Part shown: piece after piece, positions 12,459 through 61,484 of the stretch
How the letters are laid out: each line of letters starts with the position of its first letter
How positions within the stretch are numbered: the first letter of the stretch is position 1
Assembly (NCBI GenBank): GCA_943353165.1
Contig: CALRAM010000001.1
Location: forward strand, 109,803-173,802
Reading direction: 5' to 3'
Length of the DNA stretch: 64,000 nucleotides
Origin: an uncultured Candidatus Saccharimonas sp.
GTDB lineage: Bacteria > Patescibacteriota > Saccharimonadia > Saccharimonadales > OMJO01
Program-made: the position numbers and the translations under genes
The notes under the pieces: model-generated
The model's input: the letters and a program-made list of their open reading frames with translations, nothing else
Database searches by the model: none
Told to the model about the DNA's origin: nothing

Positions 12459-12662
12459 ATGGCAAAGAAACAAGGAAAACGAAAACTGGTAGGTATGGTG
12501 TCCGAAGAAAGTGGCCACCGGCACTATTACACGCCCAAAAATACTATAAATACGCCTGACAAGCTCCAACTGCGAAAATATGACCCCGTACTGCGTAAAC
12601 ATGTACTCTACGTAGAAACAAAGAAATCTCTGGGTCGCAACGAAGTCAAAAAGAAAAAATAA
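12459..12662 (+). CDS. rpmG: 50S ribosomal protein L33
   Basis: [38 protein letters not shown] matches the L33 core, with a Lys-rich C-terminal tail. Confidence 0.85.
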
Positions 12663-12740
12663 TTCTATAATTTTTTTTAGTTACAGTAAATCATGGCTAA
12701 AATAAATAGAATCTACCTAATGTAGATTCTTTATTTTGGC

Positions 12741-12810
12741 AGGGGCGCGTGGAATCGAACCACGATCTAAGGTTTTGGAGACCTTTATACTAACCGTTGT
12801 ACTACGCCCC
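12741..12810 (-). tRNA. tRNA-Trp (anticodon CCA)
   Basis: The minus strand reads GGGGCGT-AG-TACAACGGTTAGTA-T-AAGGT-CTCCAAA-ACCTT-AGATC-GTGG-TTCGATT-CCAC-GCGCCCC-T. No CCA is encoded. Confidence 0.9.
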
Positions 12811-13055
12811 TAAACACCTAATCTATTGTACAGGTTTTTTCTAGCAGACGAACTATTCTTGAACATGGCTTCTCTTGCTCTGGCTTGTTTTTCATCTGTA
12901 TACGCTTCGTAGTATACAAGCTGAAGAGGCCTCCTGTGTTTGGTTGATTTAACTAGTCCATCATTGTGCTGATTGAATCTTTTAGTCAAATCAGATGTAT
13001 ATCCATAGTATAAGTTACTATCTTTTAATGATCGTAAGGTATAAAAGTAAAACAT
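12810..13055 (-). CDS. small stand-alone GIY-YIG nuclease (UPF0213/YhbQ-like)
   Basis: 81 aa. YFYTLRSLKDSNLYYGYTSDLTKRFNQHN (GIY...YIG...R..QH) and a later conserved E (YYEAYTDEKQARAREA). Its TAG stop overlaps nt 1 of tRNA-Trp. Confidence 0.8.
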   Translation of the reverse strand: MFYFYTLRSLKDSNLYYGYTSDLTKRFNQHNDGLVKSTKHRRPLQLVYYEAYTDEKQARAREAMFKNSSSARKNLYNRLGV

Positions 13056-36759: not shown

Positions 36760-37689
36760 TTAACGCTTTGCCAAAAGCCGTCGCAGTTTTTGGGGCATAA
36801 ACGGTGCTATGTCTTTAGCGGTAGCAATGACAGTTGGTGCATGTGCGCTGACAACTGATTCCATAATCGTTACTTTTGAAAAAATTATTTTTAGGTGTTG
36901 GGCCACGATATCATTGTTAAAATACCTATCGTCCTTTACTGCGATATGACAAACTGGCAGGTCAACCTGCATGTTGCATAGATCAGCAGTCAGCATAGTC
37001 ACAGATGTATCCATATATGTTCTGATATCGTTTGATTGCCACAGAATTATTTCAAAATTTATTCGATGATTTTTTTCTGCCTCGTCTGCATCTTTTAGTT
37101 TGCTATGAGTGTCTGCAACCCTGTTATACGTAAACCTTATCAAACTGGGTCTCAGCAAAACGTGTTTTATAAACAATGCAGGTAGCCAATTTGAAAAAAA
37201 GCTAGACGTGTATCTAAAGATTAAGTAATTTCTACGCTTAAACCGAAACTCATCATGGTGCACAAAACCTACTGTGCTGACAAGCAGATCTACCTTTTTA
37301 GCCAAGTCTGGATAACGTTGAAGCATCCTAGTAACTATCAAAAATCCCAACGACATTCCCATGACGGTAATACGCTTATTTTTGTATCGCAGCTTTATAA
37401 ATGTCGCCAAATAATCAGCCAAATTATCTAGCGAAGGTTTTTTGCCAATCCGATAAAAACTATCCATTCCGCCAAAGCCTGGCAAATCTGGCATAGTTAC
37501 TGTTCCATACCTGTTTAGTTCTAAAGCCAGCCCATACAGGCGCTCTATGCTGGCGTGATGCCCATATACAACAAGCAATTCTTTGTCTTTGCCTTTTGGA
37601 GCAGGCAGACGAAGCATACGTCCGCGTAGGCCATTTATATTCAACGAATGTAGATACTCATCAATGTTTTTGGTAGTTTTTGTCGCCAT
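36760..37689 (-). CDS. alpha/beta-fold hydrolase
   Basis: Nucleophile elbow GMSLG and the HG-type region VVYGHHAS. Confidence 0.6.
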   Translation of the reverse strand: MATKTTKNIDEYLHSLNINGLRGRMLRLPAPKGKDKELLVVYGHHASIERLYGLALELNRYGTVTMPDLPGFGGMDSFYRIGKKPSLDNLADYLATFIKLRYKNKRITVMGMSLGFLIVTRMLQRYPDLAKKVDLLVSTVGFVHHDEFRFKRRNYLIFRYTSSFFSNWLPALFIKHVLLRPSLIRFTYNRVADTHSKLKDADEAEKNHRINFEIILWQSNDIRTYMDTSVTMLTADLCNMQVDLPVCHIAVKDDRYFNNDIVAQHLKIIFSKVTIMESVVSAHAPTVIATAKDIAPFMPQKLRRLLAKR

Positions 37690-37809
37690 ATATGACCCAA
37701 CTCTACACGGTATTGCTATATTTCAGCAACCTTTATCAATATTTATTCGACTATTTAGCACTTATAAGCTAAAATCTAACCTGTTAGTTGGTGTAAAATT
37801 TAGCTATGA

Positions 37810-37884
37810 TGGGATGTGGCCAAGTGGTAAGGCACCAGTTTTTGGTACTGGCATTCGGGGGTTCGAATCCCTCCATCCCAGCCA
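37810..37884 (+). tRNA. tRNA-Gln (anticodon UUG)
   Basis: Acceptor TGGGATG/CATCCCA; anticodon stem CCAGT/ACTGG with loop TTTTGGT; T-arm GGGGG-TTCGAAT-CCCTC; encoded CCA. Confidence 0.8.
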
Positions 37885-37892
37885 CAAAATGT

Positions 37893-37916
37893 CCACCTCA
37901 TGTAGGTGGTTTTTTT
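37893..37916 (+). terminator. Rho-independent terminator after tRNA-Gln
   Basis: CCACCT-CATGT-AGGTGG followed by TTTTTTT. Confidence 0.65.
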
Positions 37917-38055
37917 GTAGGTTTGACTGCGGTCTATTAGAACCCCACGACAAAGTCGTTAAAAGGGTTCGGCGTAGAGATGCTAGGCGCAGGAGTTTAC
38001 TCCGAGCATGGCTGAACAGAAAAGGACGAAGTTCGCTATCCCTTCAACCCAGTCA
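37917..38055 (+). repeat. GC-rich tRNA-flanking structured element, copy 2 (ORF-less), ending in a diverged copy of the tRNA-Gln 3' end
   Basis: GAACCC...GGGTTC hairpin (37940-37970), GGTTCGGCGTAG, GCGCAG-GGAGTTTACTCC-GAG, and AAAGGACGAAGTTCGCTATCC (38021-38041; 20 of 21 nt match 986-1006). Nt 38038-38055 match 15 of 18 nt of 37867-37884. Confidence 0.6.
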
Positions 38056-38225
38056 GGGTTCGACAAACTACATATTTGTGAGACTAACGGACCATTTTTG
38101 ATTTAGTAATTCAAATACCCAAAATAAAGATCGATATAAAACATATCTATAAAACAAAATATATTGACTCCGTATATGTAATATTGTGTTATAATACTAC
38201 TGTTTAAAAGATACTAGAGAGAAAT

Positions 38226-39335
38226 ATGCCAAATATTGAACTATGGCCTGATGTATTCGAAATAGAACCTATCCCGTCAGAATTACGGACACTAAACGTA
38301 TTGTCTGACGAATTATTGCCTATTATGGTTAATTTATCTCAAACCGAGCAATATAAAAAATTGGAAAAAATTGGTGCTGCTATGTCTGAAGACAATCTAG
38401 TGCCTGAAATTTCAGATACTTTGATGCATATTTCATCACACAGGAATGCCAGAGTTATTGCTATTAGAGGGCCAGAACCTGATGACGCTGATATAGGTAA
38501 AACTCCGCTGGAGTATCGACAACCCGAAAACAACAAAATTTCTAAAACCGAAATCCGCAGAGGCCTAATCTTGGGCATTATGGGAGTCAATGCTTATGGA
38601 TACACTAGCCAGCAACCTGGCAATATACGAAATGACATAATAGCCATAGATAAACTAAAAAATCTGAACGGTGTTAGCGCCAGCCCAAAAGAGCTGGATT
38701 TGCACACAGAAGATGCATCTTATAACTTAATAGGCGCACAAGATTCTTCAGGTAATATCTTGCCAAACAATTATAACGCCTCGCCAGACTGGCTAACTCT
38801 TAGTTTTTTGAGAAATCCTGACAATATTCCTACTTTTATATCAGTCCCGAATGCTGACAACATTAGCCCAGAAGCGCGCGAACTATTGTCGATGCCTTAC
38901 TACAGAAACTTAACAAACCCAGGGCAGGGTGGAACAGCCAATGATGCTGATTACAATTCTTCTGTAATTTACTCTATCGATGATTCTGAACCTTATTTTC
39001 GTATAAATACTTCAAACATAATAACAATAGCTAGCGCTCCAAAAAAGGCAAAAGAAGCACTGGGAGAGTTTATTTCTCATTTAGATGATATGTCGTTCGA
39101 TTTGCCAGTAACACCTGGAACCATAGTAGTCATAGACAACCTACGCGTCATGCACGGTAGACGTGCATACGGTAAAAATTTACCAAAATATGACGGTTAT
39201 GACCGCTGGCAACAGAGAATAGTCGCAACAGATGATTTGGACAGAATCAAACCGTTTGAAGTTTCCGAACGAATTGTTGATCCTATGGAACTAATAAAAT
39301 TAGCTGCAGTTCGACGCAAAAATGAAGTAGAATAG
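38226..39335 (+). CDS. clavaminate-synthase-like / TauD-family Fe(II)/2-oxoglutarate oxygenase (amino-acid hydroxylase-like)
   Basis: An H-x-E facial-triad candidate DLHTEDAS and the distal VVIDNLRVMHGRRAY are as in VioC/AsnO-type enzymes. Confidence 0.5.
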   Translation: MPNIELWPDVFEIEPIPSELRTLNVLSDELLPIMVNLSQTEQYKKLEKIGAAMSEDNLVPEISDTLMHISSHRNARVIAIRGPEPDDADIGKTPLEYRQPENNKISKTEIRRGLILGIMGVNAYGYTSQQPGNIRNDIIAIDKLKNLNGVSASPKELDLHTEDASYNLIGAQDSSGNILPNNYNASPDWLTLSFLRNPDNIPTFISVPNADNISPEARELLSMPYYRNLTNPGQGGTANDADYNSSVIYSIDDSEPYFRINTSNIITIASAPKKAKEALGEFISHLDDMSFDLPVTPGTIVVIDNLRVMHGRRAYGKNLPKYDGYDRWQQRIVATDDLDRIKPFEVSERIVDPMELIKLAAVRRKNEVE

Positions 39336-61210: not shown

Positions 61211-61285
61211 TCCGGAGTAGCTCAATGGTAGAGCACCGCCCTGTTAAGGCGATTGTTGCCGGTTCGAGTCCGGCCTCCGGAGCCA
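61211..61285 (+). tRNA. tRNA-Asn (anticodon GUU)
   Basis: Acceptor TCCGGAG/CTCCGGA; anticodon loop CTGTTAA; T-arm GCCGG-TTCGAGT-CCGGC; encoded CCA. Confidence 0.85.
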
Positions 61286-61293
61286 AAATAATA

Positions 61294-61325
61294 GTCCCAG
61301 CCAAAGGTTGGGGCTTTTATTTTGC
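61294..61325 (+). terminator. terminator hairpin after tRNA-Asn
   Basis: GTCCCAGCC-AAA-GGTTGGGGC followed by TTTTATTTT. Confidence 0.6.
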
Positions 61326-61484
61326 CGTTCTGGAAACCAGAACCTCGAACCGCAGGTTCGGTGTAGCGAACTCACGCACAGGAGCTTCCGCCGAGAAAAT
61401 GAGGAAACGTGCCGCAGGCAGCCCCGGCCTCTCTTCGAGTCTGAGCCTGAGGGCTCATCCCTCATAGTTGAATGACCGGAGCCA
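61326..61484 (+). repeat. GC-rich tRNA-flanking structured element, copy 3 (ORF-less), ending in CCGGAGCCA (the tRNA-Asn 3' end)
   Basis: CTCGAACC (61344-61351) mirrors GGTTCGAG of the tRNA T-loop (61261-61268). It also has GAACC-GCA-GGTTC, GGTTCGGTGTAG, GCACAG-GGAGCTTCC-GCCGAG, and AATGAGGA...GCCGCAG (compare AATGAGGACGCGCGCAG at 940-956). Confidence 0.55.

Follow-up and report, generated by a model that had tools for sequence, protein, structure and literature searches.

What is the compact GC-rich block that directly follows the tRNA-Gln gene of an uncultured Candidatus Saccharimonas sp. (GenBank assembly GCA_943353165.1)? The stretch of DNA analyzed here, referred to below as the window, comprises 64,000 nucleotides (nt) of contig CALRAM010000001.1. 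An earlier note, made from the letters alone, had described the block as the second copy of a tRNA-flanking element with a decayed copy of the tRNA end and with terminal inverted repeats. The block spans positions 37885 to 38055, from the palindrome adjacent to the CCA end of the tRNA through an 18-nt copy of the tRNA 3' end (the right 18-mer), and is a member of a large, Saccharibacteria-wide, and apparently undescribed family of units that are 135 to 175 bp long and contain no genes. We regard it as an evenly balanced call that a non-autonomous insertion element, site specific for the 3' ends of Saccharibacteria tRNA genes, is represented here by an old copy that still folds well.

Folded units behind tRNA genes

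In addition to the tRNA-Gln block, the window contains units behind tRNA-Tyr (copy 1, approximately positions 854 to 1020) and tRNA-Asn (copy 3, approximately 61286 to 61484). All three share the fixed-spacing motif GGTTCGGYG-N12-GCRCAG-N10-CGAGMA, and the 20-mer AAGGACGAAGTYCGCTATCC, with a chance expectation of 0, is present in copies 1 and 2 only. A covariance-model search, which the earlier note had proposed, was run with a model (R1) trained on 110 distinct cores; its only significant matches in the window are these three copies (85, 76, and 38.5 bits, all of them in the training set). The match to the tRNA-Gln copy, itself a training sequence, extends from 37966 to 38040 (75.9 bits, E value of 1e-14). 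The common motif and the R1 match bear out the earlier assignment of the block to the same element as the one at 829 to 1056, and the copy behind tRNA-Asn adds a third instance.

A scan with the core motif, performed with one genome per species, identified at least 117 matching stretches (labeled here with L numbers), nearly all of them from Candidatus Saccharibacteria/Saccharimonadales assemblies, along with a few obvious chance matches inside genes of high-GC bacteria. For 78 of the matches, the start of the motif is located 63 to 103 nt 3' of a tRNA on the same strand. The other matches are mostly second units of tandem arrays or lie at contig ends that lack the upstream sequence, and only a few have no detectable upstream tRNA. 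The units sit directly after the tRNA CCA, in the orientation of the tRNA, and occur behind more than 15 tRNA specificities, among them Ser, Met, Asn, Asp, Leu, Ala, Lys, Val, Tyr, Gln, Arg, Ile, His, and Pro. Approximately 22 to 45 nt past the motif, the 18 nt that end the tRNA appear again, and the exact repeat is typically 18 nt long and ends at CCA. The 18-mer differs from the adjacent tRNA by one mismatch at most in 42 of 77 units, and many of the remaining ones have kept the 5' part and lost the 3' part. A downstream copy of its own 3' end was found for 79 of 178 tRNAs, in a sample biased toward occupied genes. Model R1 also recovered approximately 25 copies outside the training set in loci of other genomes, again behind tRNAs. 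In a search of the window against Rfam 15, with the T-box, tmRNA, YrlA, and ribozyme families included, the tRNAs alone pass the gathering threshold, and a permissive search (E values up to 10) over copies 1 and 2 gave no credible match; our literature searches did not find a description of the element. Typical units are also seen in L033, L035, and L036, contigs of assemblies labeled Babeliales, Dormiibacterota, and Limnocylindria, and these probably represent mis-binned Saccharibacteria DNA rather than an occurrence outside the phylum.

Each unit consists, in this order, of a bidirectional terminator palindrome, an antisense version of the tRNA 3' end in degenerate form, a mini-hairpin, GGTTCG with the conserved domain, and the 18-nt sense copy. 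The mirroring of the T arm across the terminator, which the earlier note had reported for the tRNA-Gln block, is a general feature of the family architecture, and so is the match of the end of the block to the tRNA 3' end, which corresponds to tRNA positions 59 to 76. The palindrome that follows CCA includes an A-rich arm, a GC hairpin, and a T-rich arm and is usually closed by TGGN that faces the NCCA of the tRNA; the N fits the discriminator base in 73% of the copies, compared with approximately 50% for non-cognate tRNAs. This places a terminator upstream of the domain, and no promoter-like site is found within the unit. Across the family, the antisense segment runs into ...GATTCGAACC. In a register-aware test, it resembles its own tRNA over other tRNAs (Wilcoxon p of 8e-7; 14 of 67 segments rank below 0.05), with a clear likeness to the own tRNA in only about one-fifth of the units. 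The variable mini-hairpin often reads GCGNAGC, and the loops of the small hairpins include C-GAA-G, C-GCA-G, C-GGA-G, and C-AAA-G. An NGAACC partner that forms all 6 of 6 pairs with GGTTCG is present in 66 of 112 copies and in 29% of shuffles.

The conserved domain contains a covarying hairpin (positions 27 to 38), a covarying helix (16 to 20 with 44 to 48), and the covarying pairs 12-52 and 13-51, with conserved A.G and G.A (A11.G53 and G14.A50) on either side of these two pairs; C21.A43 is a conserved mismatch. The proposed structure has 84.8% of its alignment cells paired, compared with 69.6% in column shuffles (none of 500 reaches the observed value) and 25 to 36% with slid partners. The shuffle test that the earlier note had set for its claim thus came out in favor of the shared structure, with structure-aware counts far above both types of controls. 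Position Y8 pairs with G(-3), as C-G in 14 copies and as U.G in 30. As G7 and Y8 pair with the C and G located just before the 18-mer, GGTTCG and the 18-mer are adjacent in the fold. Folded in this way, the strand reads as the last 25 nt of the tRNA with the domain inserted at T-loop position 58, and with the antisense segment placed opposite, the fold mimics, in single-stranded form, the double-stranded end of a tRNA gene. In 86 of 110 cores, the + strand is more stably folded than its complement (p of 1e-9). Because of this asymmetry in energy and of the Y8-G pair, the tRNA-sense strand is the structured one; a tally of G.U versus A.C in the core alone is ambiguous as to the strand. The + strand bias and the conserved C21.A43, A11.G53, and G14.A50 fit a folded-DNA site, and the same data fit an RNA. 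A pairing of AGC (positions 50 to 52) with the GCT before the 18-mer was considered and rejected, as it showed no covariation.

Possible insertion and its alternatives

Many identical or orthologous tRNA genes have no unit, and unit-free tRNAs at the same loci run straight into unrelated sequence, mostly without a palindrome. Tandem arrays of the form tRNA-unit-18-mer-unit-18-mer, with differing units in one array, are found in L056, L090, L118, L081, and L073. For tRNA-Val(gac), the flank after the 18-mer in L046 (filled) aligns with the flank after CCA in L108 (empty), native terminator included; because these genomes are distant, the comparison is supportive rather than conclusive. A single assembly provides an informative pair, in which the units behind tRNA-Ser(gct) (L029) and tRNA-Ser(gga) (L041) have approximately 98% identity over the stretch that starts at the T arm and closes with the CCA of the right 18-mer, and no relation past that CCA. 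The right 18-mer is of the gct type behind both genes, and each tRNA retains its own base at position 66. The unit has recently been copied between these two tRNA-Ser genes. Therefore, the palindrome and the right 18-mer appear to belong to the mobile unit, which joins 3' of tRNA position 66. A crossover in the T loop with replacement of the tRNA end does not agree well with this, and we rejected a simple 18-bp target-site duplication, as the gct-type 18-mer has moved. The decayed tRNA-end copy of the earlier note is present, and is better described as a mimic carried by the element than as a duplication made at insertion.

Most 18-mers that appeared foreign turned out to be shortened copies of the own tRNA end; the clear exception is L102, behind tRNA-Arg(gcg), in which the palindrome and the left half resemble other Arg(gcg) units and a perfect tRNA-Ser 18-mer closes the right half. 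This chimera suggests recombination between dispersed copies together with a chromosomal rearrangement. In L091, behind tRNA-Val(tac), a second, partial copy of the tRNA extends from the D arm to GGTTCG and continues, precisely at that GGTTCG, into the core, forming a pseudo-tRNA with the domain in its T loop.

Under the mechanism that we propose, a recombinase supplied in trans would recognize the mimic and join the unit to the tRNA gene at or near CCA. By analogy with integron attC and CTX phage attP, the substrate is probably a folded single strand: the two arms derived from the tRNA would fold, within a circular single strand, into a likeness of the target, and a single exchange of strands close to CCA would insert the unit. 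The succession of sense end, hairpin, antisense end, the rest of the unit, and sense end is the layout that such an insertion would give. The folded-strand route also fits the single-strand-specific folding, the conserved mismatches, the DNA-like mini-hairpin loops, and the upstream terminator without an internal promoter. As the element brings its own terminator, expression of the tRNA would be unharmed, and repeated insertion at the tRNA or at an 18-mer decoy would build the arrays.

Sister families display the same layout, with a post-CCA palindrome, an antisense segment that starts with TGG, a structured body, and a sense copy of the tRNA end, combined with different cores and repeats of 20 to 21 or 23 to 26 nt. 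We distinguish family 2 (L007, L060, L063, and L029), family 3 (L064, L067, L084, and L093), and variant 1b (L024, L025, and L057). In every family, the T loop or T stem contains the 5' boundary of the repeat, whether the repeat has 18, 20 to 21, or 23 to 26 nt. Thus, repeat length is a property of the family and does not reflect a stop of reverse transcription at 1-methyladenosine 58 (m1A58). The family 2 unit in L063 carries a perfect 25-nt antisense copy of the tRNA-Lys end.

As for candidate enzymes, no recombinase, transposase, or integrase gene is linked to units among the 117 loci, in which no reverse transcriptase was seen either. Four loci encode an Xer-like tyrosine recombinase, whose presence simply reflects synteny with tRNA-Arg(cct). 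Large serine recombinases (Resolvase, Recombinase, and Zn ribbon domains) are encoded antisense into tRNA 3' ends in L058 (758-2470), L074 (81-1625), L075 (4082-5572), and L082 (4187-5758) and belong to separate islands that are a few kilobases long. In L075, the recombinase is located at one end of a 3.7-kb island between the tRNA-Gln CCA and a small unit, and this island leaves AGCCA at its far junction. A search for an autonomous version of the element through long-range repeats found only host genes or the separate serine-recombinase island, and the core had a single chance match inside a phage gene among viral contigs. In L116, the 3' end of tRNA-Thr(ggt) (2801-2876) has an exact 26-nt copy 60 nt downstream with no structured body between the two, an arrangement reminiscent of a scar left by the deletion of an integrated element.

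Several points weigh against an insertion element. As no recombinase is linked to the units, mobilization in trans is an assumption, and neither an excised form nor a clear recent pair of empty and filled sites in near-identical genomes was found. The transfer between the two tRNA-Ser genes could have occurred by homologous recombination between arrays. In many copies, the antisense segment matches the 18-mer weakly or not at all, which weakens the idea of an essential mimic hairpin. Picking copies by an intact core motif biases their apparent conservation. Finally, units at the tRNA-Tyr locus are present in four divergent genomes, where the cores have diverged and still fold, and the relatives L125 and L126 (96 to 97% protein identity) keep the tRNA-Gln unit with the compensatory changes G28A and C37U in the main hairpin and a few other substitutions, which indicates selection on the fold in place. 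Such persistence and in situ compensation fit a host-selected function as well as they fit a selfish element.

The units could instead encode a functional structured RNA or represent a cis-acting 3' trailer tied to tRNA biology, an alternative that we consider unlikely and nonetheless take seriously. A + strand transcript with antisense and sense tRNA ends around the conserved domain could serve as a decoy or partner for something that recognizes the acceptor and T arms, or could act in processing or termination; the spread over tRNAs would then be due to ancient duplication, with host selection keeping the units. Strong covariation and the structured tRNA-sense strand speak for such an RNA, as do the in situ compensatory change between close relatives, the fold kept by the tRNA-Tyr locus units of four divergent genomes, the better-than-expected fit of TGGN to the discriminator and CCA, and the high fraction of occupied tRNA genes in very small genomes. 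However, a terminator hairpin and a T run separate the tRNA from the domain, with no promoter-like site to start a transcript in the unit; in many units, both tRNA copies, sense and antisense, decay without constraint even as arrays build up; a unit is missing from many identical tRNAs; and no Rfam family matches. In addition, C-GNA-G triloops and two-base CTTG or TTTA loops are found more typically in stable mini-hairpins of DNA than in RNA, which would also count against this explanation.

Another alternative, which we judge rather improbable, is that the units are remnants or miniatures (attL-cargo-attR, similar to cis-mobilizable elements, CIMEs) of double-stranded integrative elements, inserted by a tyrosine integrase through Campbell-type recombination in the T loop, with the 18-mer as the usual identity block and the core as arm-type protein-binding DNA. 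No unit contains or adjoins an integrase gene, the syntenic Xer-like enzyme being the sole tyrosine recombinase seen, and the core is not found in viral contigs; yet elements with P4-type integrases typically have direct repeats of 18 bp that copy tRNA 3' ends, tandem integration is common for such elements, and the supply of a terminator is known from tRNA-integrating elements. The 5' boundary of the repeat in the T loop or T stem and the repeat pair in L116 point the same way. In the tRNA-Ser pair, the sole informative case, the tRNA keeps base 66 and the right repeat is of the donor type, the opposite of what a T-loop crossover produces. Moreover, a double-stranded attP needs no antisense copy, and the single-strand-specific covariation with its U.G pairs would be left unexplained. 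A retroelement-like product is very improbable: here the antisense copy would be a tRNA primer-binding site and the 18-nt sense copy the result of reverse transcription up to m1A58, as in long terminal repeat retroelements. The 18 nt from position 59 to CCA are exactly the length of the retroviral primer-binding site, the antisense segment begins with TGG, and the mature 3' end of the tRNA is where the repeat stops. This idea was dropped in view of the sister-family repeats of 20 to 21 and 23 to 26 nt, which make the boundary family specific, the lack of a reverse transcriptase in the 117 loci, and the right 18-mer that traveled with the element. Group II introns have been reported to be absent from Patescibacteria (PMC13011429), which also counts against it.

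The tRNA-Gln copy and the other tRNA ends of the window

The features of the tRNA-Gln locus are listed in Table 1. When the window was read from 37600 to 38400, all strings and coordinates of the earlier note were present, including the core strings GGTTCGGCGTAG and GCGCAG-GGAGTTTACTCC-GAGCAT, and the 172-amino-acid open reading frame (37583-38101) that it had dismissed is indeed not credible, as it runs through the tRNA.

Table 1. Features of the tRNA-Gln locus and its downstream unit (window coordinates)
Feature	Position	Strand	Basis or remark
tRNA-Gln(UUG/ttg) gene, CCA encoded	37810-37884	+	ARAGORN; Rfam tRNA, 65.2 bits
Last 18 nt of tRNA-Gln, ATCCCTCCATCCCAGCCA (tRNA positions 59-76)	37867-37884	+	Source of the right-end copy
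Left end, terminator-like palindrome abutting CCA	37885-37923	.	caaaatgt, hairpin, T7, and gtaggtt, in this order
Terminator hairpin CCACCT-CATGT-AGGTGG, then T7	37893-37909		Scored terminator-like on both strands
Segment A, TGACTGCGGTCTATTAGAACCCC	37924-37946	+	Degenerate antisense copy of the tRNA 3' end
Helix GAACCC (37940-37945) with GGGTTC (37965-37970)	37940-37970	+	From the fold
Small variable hairpin ACGAC-AAA-GTCGT, inside the GAACCC/GGGTTC helix	37947-37959	+	
GGTTCG and the conserved domain	37966-38037	+	Covariance model R1; covariation
Two base pairs of the domain	37977-37978 with 38016-38017	+	A.G and G.A on either side
Domain helix	37981-37985 with 38009-38013	+	
Domain hairpin GGAGT-TT-ACTCC	37992-38003	+	
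Terminal hairpin GGAC-GAA-GTTC	38024-38034	+	
Invariant G22C23 and G41C42 of the domain			
Closing pairs, G7 and Y8 with C and G			C and G immediately before the 18-mer
S', ATCCCTTCAACCCAGTCA, sense copy of tRNA-Gln positions 59-76	38038-38055	+	Right end of the unit; 15/18 match
GGGTTCGACAAACTACATATTTGTGAGACTAACGGACCATTTTTG, outside the core element	38056-38100	+	Decayed second type of post-CCA palindrome

The core of this copy lies 81 nt 3' of tRNA-Gln, with an 18-mer offset of 29. The copy has three changes in the 18-mer and a G.U in the terminal hairpin, yet it folds and scores well. Terminator scoring near tRNA-Gln gave a shuffled-sequence mean of 0.3 sites. The region 38056-38100 aligns with the sequence immediately 3' of the tRNA CCA in L030 and L096; it is either the native terminator or the stump of an older unit.

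The segment ATTAGAACCCC (37936-37946) is complementary to the T-arm segment GGGGTTCGAAT (37858-37868) at 10 of 11 positions, and TGACTG (37924-37929) pairs perfectly with CAGTCA (38050-38055) of the right 18-mer. The terminal inverted repeats seen by the earlier note hold for this copy, in which the duplex energy of segment A with its own 18-mer ranks at 0.02 against non-cognate 18-mers (0.09 for copy 1), but they do not define the family: the median rank of the left-right complementarity against non-cognate controls is 0.46 in a coarse test and 0.28 in an in-register test, and beyond TGGN/NCCA the complementarity of the left segment to the 18-mer is clear in some copies only. Coarse tests of this complementarity were negative, and the test that took register into account gave a signal that was significant and heterogeneous. 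The proposal that the two ends co-evolve fared similarly. The C-to-T/G-to-A change shared by TGACTG and CAGTCA is real and is kept in the relatives with 96 to 97% protein identity, but it is a single event from which co-evolution cannot be shown, because other copies with a mutated 18-mer CCA display no matching change on the left.

The earlier note had suggested looking for relatives with a tRNA-Gln locus and no block. None turned up: the unit is present in both L125 and L126, L129 has a different arrangement of genes, and the same-species contigs (6 of 6) are identical over the region and therefore uninformative. L129 shares with window positions 38100-38230 the promoter region and the start of the TauD-like gene; upstream of these, it has unrelated coding-like sequence and neither tRNA-Gln nor the unit. 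The genes around the block are ordinary and encode glycosyltransferases, a hydrolase, the TauD-like protein, and a Mur ligase.

Copy 1 (854-1020, behind tRNA-Tyr at 768-853) is the cleanest unit of the entire data set at 85 bits, with an exact 18-nt repeat and the best antisense match to its own tRNA (TGGTTCCGGGCTGTAGGAT, compared with the perfect TGGTGCAGGGTGTAGGAT). Copy 3 (61286-61484, behind tRNA-Asn at 61211-61285) has a degenerate core of 38.5 bits with several broken pairs. Its 18-mer is split into ..CCGGCCTC, a 44-nt insert (TCTTCGAGTCTGAGCCTGAGGGCTCATCCCTCATAGTTGAATGA), and CCGGAGCCA, a layout that is kept in L109 and L008, and the insert starts with a decayed T-loop-type copy of the tRNA-Asn end. 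In the region of 12460-12663 and the tRNA-Trp gene (12737-12811, minus strand), this tRNA gene is followed by a plain bidirectional terminator palindrome, which it has in common with a convergent L33-like gene; with no TGG closure and no unit, this palindrome is a useful internal example of an unoccupied tRNA end. Over the entire window (1-64000), the cumulative GC skew peaks near 31 kb and is back to zero by approximately 57 kb, which could be due to a switch of the replication strand or to a mere change in gene orientation.

Known systems and significance

Folded single-stranded sites of tyrosine recombinases are known from integrons (attC) and from the CTX phage (the attP(+) hairpin) (PMC5027507, PMC4792948). 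As in these systems, one particular strand appears to form an imperfect hairpin resembling a double-stranded site, the structure is kept beyond the sequence, with some mismatches conserved, the elements are tiny or cargo free, with the recombinase encoded elsewhere (which is assumed for the units), and they have a fixed orientation and form arrays at one site. In contrast to these systems, the units target tRNA 3' ends rather than attI or dif, their arms copy the target itself, they contain a conserved branched domain of approximately 66 nt at T-loop position 58, and they have no R and L box motifs. P4-type tRNA integrative elements and CIMEs share with the units a direct repeat that represents the tRNA 3' end (18 bp in the units), a position after the tRNA with supply of the downstream sequence, and tandem accretion. 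The units differ from them in their length of 135 to 175 bp, the lack of genes, the antisense copy of the tRNA end, the single-strand-specific covarying domain, and, in one informative case, the tRNA that keeps its own 3' end.

MITEs (miniature inverted-repeat transposable elements), repetitive extragenic palindromes and bacterial interspersed mosaic elements (REP/BIME) with their transposases (RAYT), Rickettsia palindromic elements, and the IS200/IS605-derived palindrome-associated transposable elements (PATEs) resemble the units in being short, non-coding, hairpin rich, multicopy, lineage restricted, and often located behind genes. The units, however, are found strictly at the CCA end of tRNAs and in a strict orientation, and their repeat is carried by the element rather than generated as a target-site duplication, as judged from the gct-type 18-mer behind tRNA-Ser(gga) and from the family-specific repeat length of 18 to 26 nt. 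Nor do they have consistent terminal inverted repeats of the kind that marks families of MITEs, which derive from DDE transposons, only TGGN being general, and they are not known to have a partner transposase. The succession of tRNA (leader), repeat, insert, repeat, and insert, with the target regenerated at each insertion, recalls the integration of casposons and CRISPR-type systems at tRNA 3' ends, but the informative case shows a repeat that is no duplicate of the target, no Cas1 was seen, and the inserts are homologous structured units instead of arbitrary DNA.

A bolder possibility, which we put forward tentatively and regard as doubtful, is that the units form a new class of mini-elements that depend on a host recombinase. 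Their sole "gene" would be one folded strand, either of DNA or of a guide RNA, on which both strands of the tRNA gene end are displayed around a conserved recognition domain, making it a mimic that targets itself; the core could be retargeted to any tRNA by swapping the arms, and the units would also have been co-opted as a standard terminator or insulator module of tRNA genes across Saccharibacteria.

The genomes of Saccharibacteria, of approximately 1 Mb, are thought to be poor in mobile DNA, and yet a large share of the sampled tRNA genes carry units. The units explain the spurious open reading frames and GC-rich islands seen beside tRNAs in Saccharibacteria assemblies, and model R1 can be used for their annotation. 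They also cause rearrangements, one chimeric unit having been found, and the decoy tRNA ends that they create are places in which, in principle, other integrating elements could insert. If the units are functional RNAs, they would constitute a new tRNA-linked class in a phylum whose RNA biology is almost unexplored. If they are mobile, they would offer a compact model of a non-coding element that recognizes the conserved end of an RNA gene and retargets itself among tRNAs.

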